DNA from: Thelocarpon superellum
Taxonomy: Eukaryota
Direction of reading: 5' to 3'
NCBI GenBank assembly: GCA_026025795.1
Contig: JAPEUG010000183.1
Location: 1-32,444 of the forward strand
DNA: 32,444 nt
Shown: piece by piece, positions 9,985 through 21,299 of the stretch
Layout: the number at the start of each line of letters is the position of its first letter
How positions within the stretch are numbered: position 1 is the first letter of the stretch
Translations under genes and position numbers: made by a program
Notes under the pieces: model-generated
Database searches by the model: none
What the model was told of the DNA's origin: nothing
The model's input: the letters and a program-made list of their open reading frames with translations, nothing else

Positions 9985-12900
9985 ATGACTGATGGCGGCA
10001 TGAATGAGCGCCCTCGTCTGTCGTCGCCGCTGGCGCGGGCGCCGGCTCATCACTCCTGTCGTACGTGGACCCTTCCCTCCCGGCTCATCGCCGCCCTTCT
10101 CTGTGCGTGGTCGAAGCTATTTGGACCGACTGTTGCCAATCATGTCCCCGCCAACTTCCTGCATCGAAAACTCTGTACGATGAGCTGGCAGCGATTCAGC
10201 ACCCCGCTAACGCGCTACGCATGAAGCTTCCTCCCCGACGCTCACCCGAACCTCCTCTAGAAATCCATCTCCCTTCCCCCCGCGCCCTCATGGACCCTTC
10301 TCACTCCGCCTGTCCGCCGTGTCTGACCCTCGCCGTCGGCCCCGGTCGCAATCGCTCTCGGCCACCGCGCCGGCGACGAATATGGGCCTGGGGCCACCGC
10401 GACGACCGCTGCACGACCCGGCCGCCGGCTCTCGTTGCCCCTCCGTCGACACCACTGCCTCCGCTCCCGCCGGTGACCTCCCCCGCTGGCCGCTTCACGA
10501 TGTCGCGCAATACTCCGAGGCCGATCTTCCTCGGGCCGCGGTCACCACGACCACGACCACCCTCGCCGAGTTGGCACGCCTCGTCCGCGCCCAGACCTAC
10601 CACGATCGCCGGCGGGCCGAGACCCGGCTGAGGCTTCACCGATGCTTGGTCGCCAGCGCCCTCGCCGCGCGACTAGCCCGCGCTGGCGACCTGGCCCATC
10701 GGACCTTGGTGGACAAATTCCGATCGGACGACAAGAAGGGCTTTGCCGTCCTCTACAATGCCATTCATGACGTCCGTAGCTCCTGTGACGCCACCCGACG
10801 CTATGCCTCGCTGGAGCCGGATCTCGACCGGGCAACGCCTGCCAAGAACGCGCACGCCGAGGCCTCGCCCGTGCTGTCTACGTTCATGGACCGTCTCCCC
10901 CAACAGACGCAGGCCGACTTCGTGGACCTCGTGTCGCGCCTGCGCACCGACCCGGACTTTCTGGCGGGGCGACTGTGCTCCCTCTCCACGTCCGAGCTGG
11001 CGTCCTTGACGGCCTTTCACCAGTCCCTGGACCCCGTAGACTCCGTCATGCCATCACATCCTCGAGGAAGGCCCTCGGGTCCCCCGCTGCACCGGTCGAC
11101 GACACATAGTCTCACCCCAGTGGAGCGGCTGCTCTCCTTTCACCGTCGTGACCCCCTCTGTACTCTGCTCTATACCGTCTTTGCGGCAACCGCCGCGCCT
11201 GATGCCGCCGAGGACCGGCGTCGCACCGATATCTGGTCCACCGCATGTGCCAGGATGATCGCCGACGCGAGCCCGGGCGGGGAGCAATTTCTCCGTGTTG
11301 TTCTCAATGCCTGGGCAGCCATGTGGCCATGGCCTGCCAAGAGCCGACTGGAACTGTACTTGATGAAGGCGCTGCAGGACGGCGCCTTTCTCCTCGACAA
11401 GGTCGACGACGGCGCGCCACGCACTCAAGTGTCGTCCGAGGCACGCCCCCCAAAGGATGCCATCGCCGCCGAGGAATTTTTCGATGCCGCCGTGCGCCAG
11501 CTCTTCCAGGTGCTGGACGACGAATCCGCCGCCGGCGGTCTTCCCACGGGCGTCGTCGAGCTGGGCCGGGCCATCCTCCAGAAGTTGGACGAGCCCGGCA
11601 AGCAACGCGCCGCGCAGACCTTCATCGTATCGAAGTGGTTCTTCTCCCATTTTTTACTCAACGCTCTCATCTATCCCGAGGTAGGTCCCCTTCACTCTCC
11701 TACTCATGGGTGGGCCTCGTGCTCACGACGCGATAGTCTCATGGCATGATGTCGGGGCATCATATCACGGAATACGCACGCCAACGCATCTTCAAAGAGA
11801 TCGCGAGCCAGGCATCGAAATATGTACTGGATACCACCTTTAATTGGAAGCAGAGCGTGCCCGTGCTTCCGGAGATTCGATCTCACATTGATCATATTCT
11901 CGCACGCTTTCACCCCTCGCGCCGGTCGCGAGTCCCTCCGGTGCTGGTCCCCGTCGCGTCCACGACGTCACCTCCAGCCATGGTGGAGGTCGAGCCCTTC
12001 TTGATGGTGTGCCCCGCCGATCTCCAAACCATCGTGAACGCGCTCTTCCCGGAGCGGCGCCCGCCCTCGGGATCCTTGGAGAAGGATCTGCATCACCGAG
12101 GTCTCCGGTCGGCGGCCTCATCCGTGTCCATCGCGTCTGCTCTTTCCACGCCCTTTCGGGTCCATACACCGTCCCTCGGAGGAGTGGACGCGGGATCGAT
12201 GCTTAGCACCAGTGGCTCGTCCATGATGAGCGACGCCACCTCACGTGAGCCGCTCCTCGACATGCTCGGACAGAGCACAGATGGACGGTCTTCGTACACA
12301 TCCTTCGGGTCGCGTGAGACCTTGCAGAACTACCAGAAACCTTCCACTATGGAGGAATACGGCCAGAGGCTCCGTGTGGCCCTGGACGAGATGGTTCAGC
12401 ATCTTGGTCCGGTGGCCGTCGCTGGCTCATCCCATCCGTGTGCTGAGGATTGGACGATCTTGTACGTCTCGTCGGACGGTGACTCGCTTGCGACAAGAAC
12501 CCACCAGGACTGGGACCGCGACGATGAGGACGACTCCTCCTTCCCGGATAGCGAGAGTGATGGAGACGCGCCCTTGGACGCTGTGGATCTAGAGCGGGAG
12601 TACCACCAACTCAAGGACGTCATCATCCGATTACTCCAGAAGTATGAGCTGCCCGAGAAGAGCGCGCCAGGGCACCGCTCCACCCGATCGCGGGGACGGG
12701 CGTTGACGTTCGACGACCGACCGGACACGGATGGTGCGAGCGCCGGACTCCGAGCGGATCCTAGCGGGGAGGGTCTGTCCAAGAACCCCTACCAAAGTCA
12801 GAGACACCTCTCCGGTATGATCGCGACGCAGAAGGACGGCGCTTCTGAGCGTCGGCGATCGCAACGCGCGCGAGACCGTGGCGAGCACGCCCGGTCGTCT

Positions 12901-15342
12901 CGGCATGACGCACCTTCTCTCCTGGTGACGATGCTCGATGCGGCAACGCATCAATGTCACGCAAACGGTGACTTCCTCGCCGCGCACTTGTACGCGAAGA
13001 CGCTCGAACAGATGCGTCGCCTGTCCTCCTCGTCCCTCTCACGCAATGGCTACGCGCCATTGCTGCATTACTTCGCTCGCGGTCCGCGCGAGACGCTGAT
13101 CAAGTCGGAGCGAGCCATGGAGGAGATGGAGGCATGGTTTGGATGGGTCGAGCAAGCGTTTGCACGTCAGGCGCAGGGGCTTGATCAATTAATGCGGCGC
13201 GTGACAGAGCTCCGGGACAAGATGTGGTACGTGACGGACGTCAAGAACTCGGCCGCCTACGAAGAAGCGCGGAACGTGGCGATCGCCCTGAAGACGATGG
13301 GTCAGGTGCCACGGGCTGGACAGGGCCGGCGCGCGGCCACATCCCGGTCCCGGAGCATGGGCAAAGCGACGACGAGCAACTTCCTGCTCAAGACGGAGAT
13401 CCAGATGGTCGATTTGATGACGGCGCCGGCGGAGCAAGGTGGGCCGTACAAATTGTCGGACGAGCAATCGGAGATGACGACCCGATGGCTCACGCAATAC
13501 GGGGTGGAGAATTTCTGCAAGGGCGAAGAGCGCATCCACCGCTTTTGCCTTGAGATAGACAAGTGCGTCAACAAGCTCGTGGGCGATGACATCCTCGAGG
13601 GACCAGTGCTGTGGTCGAGCGACCTGTTCTGGCGCGACAAGCAAGCCCTCGACCGCGGACATCATAAGGGAGACCTGCTCGTCAGCGGCATGGGCACGAT
13701 GAGCGTGGTGGGAGACGAGCGACTTGATCCCCACAGCCCCCGCGTCGGCCCTCGAGGACTCGACCTCCTCGGACGCTCCGGGCCACGTGACCTCCGGTCC
13801 TTCTCCGCCCGACTGGCGTCGCAATCGGGCCTCGACGTGGGGAAAGGGATGGTGGGCCGTGGCGGGAGTGCCGTGGACCTGATGGACTCGCAGGACTACG
13901 CCGGCATGGCTCACCATGGCGCCGGGCCAGACGCGAAGACTACCTTCTGGTCGCCCTTTCTCGCGCAAGCCGCTCCGCCCGGATCGCCGTCCAGCATCCG
14001 CTCGCGGACGGCCTCTCCGGCGCATGACGCGGTCACGTTGAAGCATGCGGGGAGCATGAAGGAAGAGAAGCGTCGCTTTCTGCTTGACCTGAAGCAGACG
14101 CTGATCGGACTCCTCCTGAGCGACATCGGGAGCCTGGTGTGGAGTCACGGCTGTGAGACGGACGCTTGGTTCTCCGGCGAGCTAGGCGAGGAGTGCATTC
14201 AACGGAAGTTGGAAAAGGAGATTCGGCGGTCGAAGCGGGCCCTGGCGCGACGCCGTAGCACTAAGAGTCTTCGTTCGGTCAAGGGCGAATCGATGGCGAG
14301 CCTGGAGCACACGGCCGATGACCTGCCGACATCCCGCGACCGGTCGACGGACGGGTCGGAACGCGCGGCGGTACCGAGCGCGGGCCGGGCGGCCTTTCCC
14401 TATCGCGAGGCATACGTACGCATCCTCCAAAAATTCTCGACGCATCCCAACCCCTTCGCGAAATTACACGCGCTCTACGAGCTTGAGCTCCTGATCGTCG
14501 CCTCTCAGGCCGCGGGTAACGGTCGGTCGTGTGGTTTGGCATCGATGTTACCAACACTGGGCTCGCTGAGTGAGCTGAGCACGCGGGAAGCGGAGGTCCA
14601 GCGCGCGCGGGCGCGCACTCTGGAAGAGACGATCGCGAACGTGGAGAGCCGACGGTCCCACACGATCGCCGCGAGCCGACCGTTGACGGCGCTTCCACGC
14701 TCGTCGGGCCTCTCATCTCCGACGGAAGGACTGGGCACGGACGCGGTCGTGGAGGTGATGCGAGGACTGTTCTGCGATGCGCAGATCCGGCCCAAGGCGC
14801 TGTTCCGCGATCTGCAATTCATCGCATCCTTCGTCCCGTTCCCGATCCTCGACCAGACGGCGTGCGGCAAGGCCTTCTGGGATGCGGGCCTGGCGGCGCT
14901 GGGGCTCAAGCAGGACGTGTGCCGGACGATGATTGAGATCGCCGACGATATCGTAGCCTATCACACCAAGCACCGGTCACTGTCACCAACGCGGCGGGCG
15001 ATGGCGGACGAGCAATCGTCGGAGCTGGCGCGATTCAGCATGGAGGATGCGGCGGGGATGTGGAGCATCACGGCCAAGGAGGGCGACGCGGTGGCGCAAC
15101 GCGAACTGGCCATCTTCTACCTCACCCATCCCGACCTCCTGGTGCGTACGACGCTCCCGCTCAGCAAGCCGCGCGATACGTTCAAGGCGCAGGTGATGAG
15201 CCAGCGAAACGAGGACCCGGTGCGCAGCGACCCGGCCACCATGTGCGTGGCGTATCATTGGATGGAGCTCAGCTCCCTGGGTGGGGACGACCTGGCACGG
15301 AAGTACCTCCGGGCGCGCGAGGAGCTGAATGCCCTGCCGTGA
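9985..15342 (+). CDS. Large (~1711 aa) protein with putative RasGAP-like N-region, VPS9-like domain and C-terminal Sel1-like repeat; exons 9985-10060, 10227-11680, 11737-15342
   Basis: ORFs 10319-11749 and 11746-15342 are joined by phase-0 intron 11681-11736 (GTAGGT, GCTCAC, TAG). The upstream exon joins via phase-1 intron 10061-10226 (GTACGT, GCTAAC, AAG). Domain calls are by motif resemblance only. Confidence 0.85.
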
Positions 15343-18464: not shown

Positions 18465-19095
18465 ATGCAGCTGCTCCTCTTCTCCTACTGCTTCGTTCTA
18501 GCCCGCGCGGCAGCCGTCATACCTCGAGCCAGCCTCGGACCCTTTCCCAAAGTCTATTCGGCGTCCTCGACCCCAGAATCATGCATCCAATCGATGGGAA
18601 CTGTCTGCGGGGGTCAAGCACTGGAAAATGTCACCAGCCGGCAGCATTTGGTCCTGATCAACTCGGACTCTTCCGAGTCGACGTATTCTCTCAACTACCA
18701 AGGCATGAACGACTCGTGCAAGGCACATGACGCGGACATGTTGAGGACTCAGTATAATGTGAGTGCGGCTCTCGGAAGGGGAAGGGAACGAGTACGAGGA
18801 CGAGGACGAGTACCCACCAGGGTGCCGCAGCTAACGGGAACTCGGTGGCGCTTAGGGTTCGGTGTACGGCAACGTCTTTCAAGTCGCGACTGCCTGCTCC
18901 AGCGACGGCCTCCAAGACACCATCCAAGACTCCACCGCGTCAGGGTTCAACGTAAATATTACCCGGGCGAATTTCGACACCTGGGTCGATCTAGACCCGA
19001 GTGGTCCATGTCCCGCCCGACCTCAGTACCGTCGGCTGAGTGGCGGCTTTGGAGATAACAAGACTTGTACTGCTGGGTCGTCCTCCACCTCATGA
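18465..19095 (+). CDS. Small secreted cysteine-containing protein (177 aa), unknown family; exons 18465-18758, 18856-19095
   Basis: Signal-peptide-like MQLLLFSYCFVLARAAA followed by VIPR. Phase-0 intron 18759-18855 (GTGAGT, GCTAAC, TAG). Six Cys in the mature part, several N-x-S/T sites, TACATAAA ~90 bp upstream. Confidence 0.82.
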
Positions 19096-19446
19096 GCCCC
19101 ATTCCTTGTCCTCCACCTGTCCATCAAGCGTTGAGTTGCTCCATCGGGGTTTCTGGAGAACCCTTTGTAGACCAACGTGTACAACGCATGTAGGCGCGCA
19201 AGAGATCCCAATGACAAGTATCTTCCACTACTCGTGACAGGAGTCCCTTGTTGGACAGCAACTCCATGAGTCCTTCCTCGCCCGCCACGTTGGTCGTTCA
19301 TTCGACTCGGCCACGTTTGAGCCCGGCCTCGAACGTTTTGCTTCGGTGTGCATGCGTTTCATTATGATCCCGCCACGTTTCGTCGACCGCGGTCATTCTT
19401 GGATACGGATAGCCCACTGTCCGCAAGATTGAGATCACATCCATCC

Positions 19447-21060
19447 ATGCCCACAATGACGATGATCGCGATGGACTCGTCGGAAGTCGAGCCGGTGATT
19501 TCCGACCAGGCGCAGAGGAAACTCCGCCTGGCCCACACTCCGACTTGTGTGCGTGACGGATGGCGCACGGTCTCGCGGGCCTCGTACCAAGCATCCGTGT
19601 ACAGCGACAGCGTGGTGGAGGTGCCGGAAGAGATGTACAGCGTGGAAACGGTGGAATTTCTTGGCTTCGCCGCCGAGGTGGCGTGGGAGATCTGGAAGCG
19701 GTACCGGGAGCAGGAGAAGCTGCAGCCGGACGAGGTGGAGCTGCTGGAGGTGTGCAACGATCGCGTCGACCAGGGCATGGACGCGTGCGACGACACGGAC
19801 GACTGGGACGCGGCGATGCAGAGCATGGGCATCACGGCGCAGCTCCGCGCGCGCATCCTCACCCCGGGACACGAGAACATTCGAGCGACGCAATCAGCCA
19901 AGGAGTGGGTACTGGCGACGATCAAAGAGCGGTACGGCTTCCTCTTCTCGCTCAACACATGGATCCTGCATCCGAACCTCAGCCGGGCCCTACCCGTGAC
20001 GCGACCGCCAGCCACCAAGACGGCCGAGCGCTGGGCGAATCGAGACGGACGACCTCCGCGACACCCCTCCATGCACGATCGGGCGCTGATGCTCTACAAA
20101 GGCGGCACGATGGCTCTTCTCGCGCACGCACAGCCCGGCGGGCACGCGCGACTCGAGCGGATCGCATCCCGCGGCACGCTCGACTACAGTCACGCGCCAG
20201 CGAAGCCACTGTACCTCACGCCGCAGCTCGGGGCCGCGACGGCCTTCGCGTCGTACGCGCGGGCCCGATGCGGGGCCGAGGTCCCCGTGGGCGTGCTGCA
20301 GGTCGCGGTGCCCAAGGCGCTGCTGCGCGTCGGCCGGCCCATCTCGCTCTCGCTGTTCCAGGATCTCGCGTGGTGCCACCGCGTCTACAAGACCGGCACG
20401 GACGGTATCGCGGCCGCGGCCGCGTCCGCCGGGGCCCACCCGCTCCTCGTCGGGCCCGTCCTGGCCATCAGCAACGCCACGCTGCACCGCCTCGTTCGTG
20501 ATGGCGGCGTCGTACATTCTGATCTGCGCCCGTTGAGACTGGCTGGGATTGAAGCTCAGTCGCCTTATTTCCCAGGGTCGGCGGAAGGAGATGGAGGAGG
20601 AGGAGGAGGAGGGAGGGTAAGAGAAGTGGATCATCTTCTGGATAGTCCGTGGGTGACTCGCGCGCCTCGTGATATCACTACCGCTCCGACCGGGACAGGC
20701 ACGCGCGCAGTGGGGTCCACCTCATCACCATCGTCACAGGCAGCCTCGCACGCGACGACGACGGCGACGACGACTCCAAGAGCAGGAGAAAGCAACAACA
20801 ACGTACTCCAGAGAGAGACGGGAACGGGACAAAGGAGGAATGAAAAGACGGAAGAGACGGGGGAAGAGATGAGAGACGGGAAAGGGGATGTGAAAGGGGA
20901 CGAAGTGGACATGACAAACTACATCTTTACGAACCCCGCACTGGTCGATCTCCTGAATCAGGCTTCGTCGCTGCGCCTGGCTTCGTTGCCTTTGCCAATG
21001 CCGCGGTTCGGAGGACATACCTGTGCAGCAGCGGCGGCGGGATGTGGCGAGTTTATTTGA
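19447..21060 (+). CDS. Uncharacterised protein: acidic helical N-domain + putative DUF3990/ADP-ribosyltransferase-like domain (start uncertain; ORF opens at 19348)
   Basis: 570-codon open frame with strong GC3 bias. Motifs LMLYKG, DYS..PLYLTPQ..A..FASYA, LLVGPV, NYIFTN..VDLLN. Confidence 0.75.
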   Translation: MPTMTMIAMDSSEVEPVISDQAQRKLRLAHTPTCVRDGWRTVSRASYQASVYSDSVVEVPEEMYSVETVEFLGFAAEVAWEIWKRYREQEKLQPDEVELLEVCNDRVDQGMDACDDTDDWDAAMQSMGITAQLRARILTPGHENIRATQSAKEWVLATIKERYGFLFSLNTWILHPNLSRALPVTRPPATKTAERWANRDGRPPRHPSMHDRALMLYKGGTMALLAHAQPGGHARLERIASRGTLDYSHAPAKPLYLTPQLGAATAFASYARARCGAEVPVGVLQVAVPKALLRVGRPISLSLFQDLAWCHRVYKTGTDGIAAAAASAGAHPLLVGPVLAISNATLHRLVRDGGVVHSDLRPLRLAGIEAQSPYFPGSAEGDGGGGGGGRVREVDHLLDSPWVTRAPRDITTAPTGTGTRAVGSTSSPSSQAASHATTTATTTPRAGESNNNVLQRETGTGQRRNEKTEETGEEMRDGKGDVKGDEVDMTNYIFTNPALVDLLNQASSLRLASLPLPMPRFGGHTCAAAAAGCGEFI

Positions 21061-21070
21061 CCTCCTGGTC

Positions 21071-21089
21071 CTCTCTCTCTCTCTCTCTC
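21071..21089. repeat. (CT)n microsatellite
   Basis: ctctctctctctctctctc, directly after the 21060 stop. Confidence 0.9.
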
Positions 21090-21299
21090 CTCTGTCTCTC
21101 TTGGGGTGTTGTGACATTCTTACTTCTGCCTTGCTCGAAAATATTGTTATGCTTTTGATAGCAATAGCCAGTGGCCAAGACAAGAGTAGAAGTATCCATC
21201 TCCAGCCTCAATAGACCCCATCTCCACACGTACACTCTGGTTCTCGCTACAGTATATATCCTTGTAATGATCGCACCAAGAGAATGTGTGTTAAGAAAG

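Follow-up and report, generated by a model that had tools for sequence, protein, structure and literature searches.

A probable remote homologue of DUF3990, with a predicted ADP-ribosyltransferase fold, in a two-domain protein family of Pezizomycotina

DUF3990 (Pfam PF13151) is found in small bacterial proteins, about 160-290 amino acids long in Bacillota. A published passage places the family in the ADP-ribosyltransferase (ART) clan of Pfam, with eukaryotic members (PMC7955679), and another, on the Serratia type VI effector Rhs5, reports that no domain other than DUF3990 is recognisable in the C-terminus of that protein (PMC4524185). In this work, we describe a fungal protein encoded by the open reading frame (ORF) at positions 19447-21060 (+) of a 32,444-nucleotide stretch of DNA from the lichen-forming ascomycete Thelocarpon superellum (metagenome-assembled genome, assembly GCA_026025795.1, contig JAPEUG010000183.1; the whole stretch is referred to as "the window"). 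The C-terminal domain of this protein is very probably a remote homologue of DUF3990 with an ART fold, as sub-threshold hidden Markov model (HMM) matches, profile-profile comparison and the predicted structure all converged on one family and one register. Because the DUF3990 family and its presence in eukaryotes are already known, the system is not new in kind; what is new is a diverged fungal branch that lies below the Pfam thresholds, in which one site residue has changed and the domain is joined to a new partner. Many filamentous ascomycetes, including plant pathogens (Botrytis, Colletotrichum) and lichen fungi, carry this branch, which the Pfam thresholds miss.

The settings of bacterial DUF3990 are toxin-like, and they include the tips of Rhs effectors, candidate phage-defence systems and pairs with DUF3791. 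Four bacterial DUF3990 proteins matched candidate defence models of PADLOC (PDC-M13A/B, M10A and M42A), with E values down to 8.4e-65. The small ORF upstream of the bacterial DUF3990 gene was DUF3791 in all cases scanned (3/3), and one DUF3990 protein was fused to HTH_3.

Two further groups of ART-fold proteins are relevant here. The ParT, RES, MbcT and NatT toxins either ADP-ribosylate Prs or degrade nicotinamide adenine dinucleotide (NAD+). These toxins (PDB 6d0h, 8gug, 9r35, 6fkg and 8qnl) gave the best structural matches to the fungal domain, with compact ART folds of similar size. However, sequence identity to them was only 8-12%, and the fungal protein, unlike these toxins, is eukaryotic, has two domains and is not accompanied by an antitoxin gene. 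There was no match to RES (PF08808) or a related Pfam family at E<=1 in 75 family proteins, and the neighbours in the window are housekeeping genes; the likeness is a structural one only. With the diphtheria-toxin group and the PARP catalytic domains, which carry a His-Tyr-Glu (H-Y-E) site, the fungal domain shares the fold class (Z 5.0-7.0), a Tyr in the equivalent 'GxY/LY' strand and a beta1 strand ending in x-G, whereas it has neither the His nor the catalytic Glu and no Pfam PARP match.

The fungal family and its C-terminal domain

The ORF is an uninterrupted frame of 537 codons plus a stop codon. Judged from sequence, its product is a member of a large two-domain family of Pezizomycotina that has no name. 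A HMMER scan of 1.84 billion representative sequences gave 430 representative clusters at E<=1e-3, 167 of them at E<=1e-10. The relatives are typically about 390-430 residues long and match the query over residues ~17-190 and ~214-375; the closest one, among the matches listed, is 41% identical. Named members come from Colletotrichum, Botrytis, Melanomma, Xylona, Sarea, Sarcosagium, Thelocarpon impressellum and a Lecanoromycetidae sp., and all are labelled 'hypothetical' or 'uncharacterized' except for one UniRef label ('EF-hand domain-containing protein'). Ascomycota was also the most frequent phylum of the nearest clusters in the ESM Atlas. The query and 68 full-length relatives (69 sequences) were aligned with MAFFT (alignment A1; mean column identity 20%). 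When an HMM was built from the 68 relatives with the query excluded, it matched the query over residues 13-372 with 276.9 bits (E 1.2e-86), and the gene is therefore taken to be real and a clear member of the family.

Other searches returned little. A word-based homologue search with the protein found its own record alone, and the same kind of search with the family alignment found no split or fused form of the family among shorter (30-203 amino acids) or longer (941-2685 amino acids) proteins, which is weak evidence. Sequence searches of the PDB gave two chance rows for the protein (E 0.69 and 0.76) and three rows for the family profile (E 1.5-4), and a tblastn search of plasmids with one relative (P0013) gave two chance matches. 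For four fungal family proteins there was no match in PHROGs, and PADLOC gave a single weak one, of P0055 to PDC-M13B (E 0.0038).

The part of the protein with which we are mainly concerned is the following.

20077..20571, + strand: core of the DUF3990-like ART-fold domain, residues 211-375 (supported by hhalign, by blocks of the AlphaFold model with predicted local distance difference test (pLDDT) means of 71-96, and by Foldseek and VIA)

A reading made earlier from the sequence alone (the sequence-only reading) had proposed that the C-terminal half is DUF3990-like and has an ART fold, and both a profile match and a predicted ART fold were found when looked for. Among 75 relatives scanned singly, 15 matched PF13151 at E<=1, all in one register (residues ~240-425 against profile positions ~22-152), and 8 of the 69 alignment members did so at E<=0.01; no other family recurred in either set. 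At the same position one relative also touched ART-PolyVal and one Exotox-A_cataly (E 0.039). For comparison, bacterial domains were collected by a Pfam search of 401 Bacillota genomes, sampled around an unrelated Listeria gene, which yielded 13 genomes with matches above the cut-off, and 12 of the domains were aligned (alignment A2). These domains show the motifs YHG, DFG.GFY.T..QA..WA, W..FV..NR, D.V.GP.ADD and Q..F, in agreement with those given for DUF3990 in the sequence-only reading. When the fungal family alignment was compared with the bacterial one by hhalign, a probability of 95.6% was obtained (E 1.3e-8, 123 columns), and when only the columns of the C-terminal domain were used, local alignment gave 96.3% and global alignment 96.9% (E 2.7e-10). 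The bacterial-like order of motifs (YHG/YKG, DF, Y, W..R, GP, Q) is kept in the fungal family, and the ESM Atlas listed DUF3990-bearing clusters both by features (0.94) and by structure.

The C-terminal domain is predicted to adopt the split beta-sheet core of ARTs. The full-length AlphaFold model had a mean pLDDT of 73.9 and a predicted template modelling score (pTM) of 0.72, with block means of 71-96 over residues 211-370; a model of the C-terminal domain by itself (residues 205-415) reached a pLDDT of 80.1 and a pTM of 0.75. With the domain model, the best Foldseek match in the PDB was ParT (E 4.8e-4, probability 1.00, TM 0.58), and MbcT also matched (E 0.022). VIA, an aligner independent of Foldseek, again ranked ParT first (Z 8.2, 147/160 residues aligned, root mean square deviation (rmsd) 3.9), followed by the RES toxin VPA0770 (7.2), RhsP2-CT (7.1) and exotoxin A (7.0), and then by diphtheria-type toxins, NatT, MbcT, tankyrase and PARPs; Z>=5 was reached by 23 chains, and ART-type proteins made up nearly the whole of the top 50 rows. 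The full-length model recovered the same ART families with lower scores. A viral protein without a name was also matched structurally (E 7.2e-4).

The conserved site and the displaced Gln strand

The sequence-only reading had picked out six ordered motifs, and all six were found, in order, in the frame 19447-21060. The first five, listed below, fall on conserved columns of the family and align with the bacterial YHG, DFG.GFY.T..QA, W..FV..R and GP.

20086-20106, + strand: beta1, LMLYKGG, residues 214-220 (within predicted strand E213-221), with Lys218 at 20098-20100

20182-20256, + strand: DYS..PLYLTPQLGAATAFASY (DY....PLYLTPQ..AA..FA), residues 246-270, with Asp246, Tyr256 and Ala264; corresponds to bacterial DFG.GFY.T..QA..WA, with which hhalign aligns it

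20290-20313, + strand: GVLQVAVP strand, residues 282-289 (predicted strand E281-289; family consensus IL..VP)

20356-20382, + strand: FQDLAWCHR helix, residues 304-312, with Arg312 at 20380-20382; corresponds to bacterial W..FV..NR, aligned by hhalign

20443-20460, + strand: LLVGPV strand and turn, residues 333-338; Gly336-Pro337 corresponds to bacterial D.V.GP.ADD minus the Asp residues (hhalign)

Column counts are given here out of the 68 relatives, and bacterial states come from the 12 aligned domains. Asp246 lies in a column with D in 66/68, opposite an invariant bacterial Asp, and is followed by a column with F in 65/68 (Tyr247 in this protein), opposite a near-invariant Phe. Tyr256 (Y in 63/68) and Ala264 (A in 67/68) correspond to an invariant Tyr and a near-invariant Ala, respectively, and Arg312 (R in 64/68) to an Arg found in 12/12 bacterial domains. 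The column of Gly336 has G in 64/68, with a fungal consensus of L.GPIC that contains no Asp; in the bacterial domains D89, G93 and A96 are invariant and D98 is near-invariant in this region. The column of Lys218 has K in 55, R in 8 and I in 4 of 68, while His is present in 12/12 bacterial domains. Hence the change from His to Lys proposed by the sequence-only reading does stand, in that Lys218 is placed opposite the His of YHG by the greedy and global modes of hhalign, but it is the family consensus and not particular to this protein. The last column, in which this protein has Pro373, holds Q in 67 relatives and H in 1, opposite a near-invariant bacterial Gln. The site residues shared by the fungal and bacterial domains are thus Asp, Tyr, Ala, Arg, Gly and Gln, and the site pattern is Lys-Tyr-Gln in the fungal family against His-Tyr-Gln in bacterial DUF3990.

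Overall, the fungal family resembles bacterial DUF3990 in the order of its motifs and in having Asp-Phe, Tyr, Ala, Trp..Arg, Gly-Pro and a C-terminal Gln. It differs in having Lys (or Arg) for His, no Asp before GP and no ADD, a longer spacer between beta1 and DF, and an unrelated N-terminal domain of 170 residues; it also lacks a DUF3791-like part (profile-profile probability 0.09%) and stays below the Pfam threshold.

In this copy, the last strands of the domain are separated by additional sequence, the parts of which are as follows.

20524..20571, + strand: LRPLRLAGIEAQSPYF, residues 360-375, the approach to the Gln strand, with Gln371 at 20557-20559 and Pro373 in the Gln column (MAFFT)

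20587..20613, + strand: (GGA)n microsatellite encoding GDGGGGGGG, residues 381-389, evident in the sequence; the source run has contig breaks at 20580-20623

20614..20664, + strand: RVREVDHLLDSPWVTRA, residues 390-406, proximal candidate for the last helix and strand (H389-397, E402-405)

20665..20916, + strand: low-complexity, purine-rich stretch encoding Thr/Ser/Gly/Glu-rich residues 407-490, in an open frame and predicted to be disordered (pLDDT <50 over 416-499)

20917..20958, + strand: NYIFTNPALVDLLN, residues 491-504, distal candidate for the Gln strand and the following helix, in which Asn491 would take the Gln position; a low-confidence helix in the model

The low-complexity insert noted by the sequence-only reading is indeed present, at about residues 376-490 (~115 residues, including the poly-Gly run encoded by (GGA)n), and none was seen at that place in the 29 of 68 relatives inspected. 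An error in the number of GGA copies cannot shift the frame, as the repeat unit is three bases. Two placements can be considered for the end of the domain. In the MAFFT alignment and the AlphaFold model, the strand, helix and strand that close the domain fall in the proximal stretch (residues 366-406); the placement by AlphaFold follows the MAFFT alignment supplied to folding, and the mean pLDDT of the H389-397/E402-405 blocks is 75-80 in the full model and about 55-56 in the domain-only model. Against an HMM of the family C-terminus, the proximal segment scored -1.6 bits, and 153/500 shuffles were as good or better. The same HMM aligned YIFTNPALVDLLNQA, within the segment 480-537, to 'yvfqgesvieeLner' with 1.8 bits, a score equalled or exceeded by 1/500 shuffles. 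A profile of the bacterial C-terminus matched neither the proximal nor the distal stretch. On these scores the distal motif NYIFTNPALVDLLN, after which the ORF ends with a tail of 33 residues, is probably the displaced end of the domain, and Asn491 would therefore occupy the Gln position. The sixth motif of the sequence-only reading is thus upheld in so far as it beats 499/500 shuffles, and left in doubt by its low score (1.8 bits only), the missing bacterial counterpart and the preference of MAFFT and AlphaFold for residues 366-406. The same holds for the change from Gln to Asn, which requires the distal motif to be the genuine strand, while MAFFT puts Pro373 in the column, with Gln371 two residues upstream. 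Under either placement, the near-invariant Gln of the family has no in-register counterpart in this copy.

A number of observations weigh against the reading of a DUF3990-like, NAD+-using domain, and they concern both its homology and its site. First, the protein and its C-terminal domain matched no Pfam family even at E<=10, and no NCBIfam; the PF13151 matches of the relatives were all sub-threshold, the best at 22.3 bits (E 1.1e-4) against a gathering score of 32.2 bits. Second, the default local mode of hhalign omits beta1, so that the pairing of Lys with His (L.KGG with LYHGS) was obtained in the greedy and global modes only. Third, the structural scores are middling: no row other than the best (Z 8.2) reaches 8, a best Z of 7 to 8 is typical even for models that have no clear Foldseek match, and the full model has no Foldseek match at E<=0.001. 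Fourth, three polar residues that are invariant or near-invariant in bacteria (the beta1 His, the Asp that precedes GP and the last Asp of ADD) have been lost in the fungal family, and the canonical ART triads (H-Y-E and R-S-E) are absent. Fifth, this copy has Phe304 where the family has its first Trp (61/68) and Pro in its Gln column, and its last strands are interrupted by low-complexity sequence, so it could be inactive. Finally, in the literature searched, which for the fungal part consisted of titles and the beginnings of abstracts, no activity was reported for DUF3990 or for the fungal family.

Proposed activity and its alternatives

We propose a cytoplasmic protein in which the N-terminal domain of the family is joined to a strongly diverged DUF3990/ART domain that uses NAD+; the use of NAD+ would follow from fold and homology, and we give this proposal an even chance of being right. 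For catalytic activity as such, the balance tips slightly in favour of the family as a whole and somewhat against this particular copy. If the proposal is correct, the conserved site would bind NAD+, with Tyr256 stacking on the nicotinamide in the way the equivalent Tyr of H-Y-E ARTs does, and with Lys218 contacting the ribose or a phosphate like the His or Arg of other ARTs. The protein would then transfer ADP-ribose to a target, or consume NAD+. The sequence-only reading had likewise proposed an NAD+-using enzyme or toxin that would act inside the cell, for example in defence, incompatibility or nucleic-acid modification; toxicity and these roles are conjectural. Because the fungal family, like bacterial DUF3990, has Gln rather than Glu at the catalytic position, the expected activity would be mono-transfer or NAD+ degradation independent of a general base, and not that of a PARP-like polymerase. 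The N-terminal domain would most likely target or restrain the catalytic domain. In this copy, the activity may be weakened by the insert of ~115 residues at the Gln strand, as the Gln has either slipped out of register (Gln371/Pro373) or given way to Asn491.

Should the family prove to use NAD+, it would represent a new variant of the ART site and a new candidate in fungal NAD+ signalling or cell death, and it would offer a eukaryotic handle on what DUF3990 does. One may go further and imagine a Pezizomycotina-wide intracellular effector, consuming NAD+ or ADP-ribosylating its targets, that was derived from bacterial conflict systems (DUF3990 toxins, candidate phage-defence genes), carries a previously undescribed Lys-Tyr-Gln site and is restrained, until a trigger arrives, by an N-terminal domain in the position that the autoinhibitory helical subdomain has in PARPs; fungal immunity, allorecognition and stress-induced cell death are examples of where it might act. 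This extended scenario is speculative, and we consider it unlikely.

Pseudo-enzyme ART modules exist, the TASOR pseudo-PARP and PARP13 domains being examples. The strongest of the alternatives is that the domain described here is another such module, which no longer uses NAD+ and has a binding or scaffold role, either in the whole family or in this copy only. This would agree with the replacement of the beta1 His, with Gln instead of Glu at the catalytic position, and with the loss of the bacterial Asp residues around GP..ADD; for this copy, it would also agree with the Pro in the Gln column and with the insert that splits the last strands. Moreover, TASOR (Z 4.3-5.1) and PARP13 (4.0-4.7) are among the structural matches, and the N-terminal domain is better conserved than the ART-like domain. 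However, five or six polar or aromatic positions are kept at 93-99% although the mean column identity is 20%, and such positions are usually lost by pseudo-enzymes; this strong conservation argues that the family retains a working site. Two of these positions, Arg and Gln, show little or no variation among the bacterial domains either, and Gln is the ancestral state of DUF3990, so no fungal loss has occurred there. We therefore regard a pseudo-enzyme as rather unlikely, yet deserving more weight than any other alternative.

The next alternative concerns the gene model. The ORF is represented at NCBI by the record 'MAG: hypothetical protein M1838_001359 [Thelocarpon superellum]', a protein of 366 amino acids that starts at residue 4 of the ORF. 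The two models differ in the following features.

19447..21060, + strand: proposed single-exon coding sequence, 537 codons plus stop (based on the ORF, the unbroken HMM alignment over residues 13-372, the open frame and synonymous substitutions)

20512-20575, + strand: intron of the public model, 64 bases; after ..RDGGV the product jumps to GRRKEMEEEEEEGG and stops at about 20620

If the public model were correct, the bases 20512-20575 would be spliced out, the protein would end near 20620 without its last strands, and NYIFTNPALVDLLN would be an untranslated chance resemblance. In its favour are that it is the model of the NCBI record, that the proposed intron begins with GTACAT and ends in a pyrimidine-rich CAG, and that the distal motif scores only 1.8 bits. 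On the other hand, the skipped bases encode VHSDLRPLRLAGIEAQSPYFP, which the family HMM aligns with high posterior up to residue 372 and which contains the predicted strand E371-374; for this reason we read 20512-20575 as coding. Splicing would also move the frame into a Glu-rich tail that resembles no relative, whereas frame 0 stays open for another 440 bases. Over the low-complexity part, 20575-20916, frame 0 is free of stops while the other two frames have 5 and 3, and only 96/5000 shuffles of these bases leave frame 0 open. In the other two forward frames of 20500-21120, nothing resembling the family was found.

Environmental DNA bears on the same question. DNA nearly identical to 19400-21200, with few substitutions, is present in contigs of two moss-metagenome runs (X2 and X3), which were counted as one haplotype as both come from one study; that study is not the one of the likely source sample, so the same or a very close fungus occurs there. 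Within the ORF, this haplotype has four substitutions (19593, 19656, 20808 and 21015), all at third positions and synonymous in frame 0, and its sole indel is an in-frame GGG insertion behind 21015. The two substitutions 3' of 20620, at 20808 and 21015, and the three-base indel thus argue for translation beyond the end of the public model. A contig of 261 bases from run X5 has two differences, one of which, at 20072, is non-synonymous (Met209 to Thr). Two further metagenome differences, at 21141 and 21146, fall past the stop codon. Taken together, the 3' intron of the NCBI model is probably an annotation error, which removes conserved residues and cuts the ART-like domain short, and we judge it improbable that the public model is right. 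The result corrects that model and supplies an alignment from which a family model can be built.

A different, unannotated intron, whose removal would fuse the Gln strand with the distal motif, was also considered and rejected: there are 64 in-frame GT..AG pairs that keep the frame open, and 0 of them have a CTRAY branch motif. Most of the acceptors are without a pyrimidine tract; a few have CAG or CCAAG at their end, and a single donor (GTAAGA at 20617) looks fungal.

Slightly less probable still than the public model is that the family is real but that this copy is decaying, with its 3' part disrupted by microsatellite expansion and the gene drifting towards a pseudogene. Such decay would account for the insert being absent from the 29 relatives inspected, for the loss of the Gln column and the changes Trp304 to Phe and Phe247 to Tyr, and for the nearest relative, among the matches listed, being only 41% identical. 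It would not be expected to leave 537 codons without a stop or a frameshift, nor to give 4/4 synonymous substitutions in the X2/X3 haplotype, and Lys218, Asp246, Tyr256, Arg312 and Gly336 are all retained in a protein that has a high HMM score over residues 13-372. Finally, it is barely credible that the likeness to DUF3990 and ARTs is convergent or spurious and the domain of another fold class: no single score is overwhelming, the Pfam matches being all sub-threshold and Z at most 8.2, but the HMM matches of 15 proteins, a profile-profile probability of ~96% and the predicted structure agree on family and register, and the language-model search and the motif order (YHG/YKG, DF, Y, W..R, GP, Q) concur.

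The N-terminal domain and the surroundings of the gene

Upstream of the DUF3990-like domain, the protein has two further parts.

19483..19986, + strand: conserved N-terminal domain, residues 13-180, family-specific and mixed alpha/beta (based on conservation and pLDDT)

19993..20076, + strand: variable linker, residues 183-210 (pLDDT <50 over 183-187 and 192-198; gappy and poorly conserved in the family alignment)

The N-terminal domain is the best-conserved part of the protein in most of the 150 matches listed, and in the full-length AlphaFold model it has block-mean pLDDT values of 85-98 over residues 11-180. Neither this domain nor the truncation of the ART-like domain in the public gene model had been noticed in the sequence-only reading. 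It had no Pfam or NCBIfam match and no usable match in the ESM Atlas, and its best structural rows, taken from the full-length model, were at Z 3.3-3.6. A complex prediction for the N- and C-terminal domains gave a score of 0.00; controls were not run, and the score weighs neither way. Catalytic fragments of PARP3, PARP2, PARP4 and PARP1 align over model residues ~27-416 (197-219 residues, Z 4.5-5.5, rmsd 5.2-6.7), and the fungal model recalls the PARP layout of a helical subdomain followed by an ART domain. This may hint at an analogous regulation, but it is only a lead because the two-domain score is no better than that of the ART domain alone.

Weak matches within the N-terminal domain were seen in three relatives: P0036 (residues 54-94) to RuvA_C (E 0.076), P0086 (73-96) to Ubiq-assoc (E 0.29) and P0141 (113-132) to UBA_7 (E 0.037). 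We take these three families to be UBA-like three-helix modules. The domain contains two 'GF/GI' helix-turn motifs, and it may be built of UBA-like repeats.

In bacteria, an ORF of 76-87 amino acids lies directly 3' of several DUF3990 genes (L045, L046, L047, L049 and L058); it has no Pfam match, and the ORFs show a weak mutual alignment. It is possible that DUF3791, DUF3990 and this small downstream ORF form a three-gene module. Two candidate relationships of the fungal N-terminal domain to such partners were tried and rejected, one with DUF3791 (profile-profile probability 0.09%) and the other with the small downstream ORF (0.12%).

The window is an ordinary piece of fungal chromosome, and the neighbours of the ORF are housekeeping genes. 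The surrounding ORFs matched, in Pfam, NOB1, a pyridine-nucleotide disulphide oxidoreductase, phosphatase inhibitor 2, an Rtt109-type histone acetyltransferase and a P-loop ATPase of the NUBP type. The maximal Kyte-Doolittle mean was 0.70 for 15-residue windows in the first 75 residues and 1.52 for 19-residue windows in the whole protein. Thus the protein appears to have no hydrophobic N-terminus, which is consistent with the absence of a signal peptide or membrane span (on hydropathy alone, no dedicated predictor being used) and agrees with the claim of the sequence-only reading that there is no signal peptide. As there is no hydrophobic N-terminus and the neighbours are housekeeping genes, neither secretion nor a gene cluster is suggested.

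Immediately 3' of the stop codon, a CT-rich microsatellite occupies positions 21061-21103, where contigs of the source run also break. Directly upstream of the gene, the ORF at 18465-19058 (+) has no Pfam match; it has a hydrophobic, signal-peptide-like start and an Arg-rich later part, and from its sequence this later part looks non-coding or intron-containing. Further upstream, two long abutting ORFs of 455 and 1198 amino acids at 10382-15342 (+) lie where the GC content of the window is highest (GC 0.62-0.67). They had no Pfam match at E<=0.001, and the two may be one large gene.

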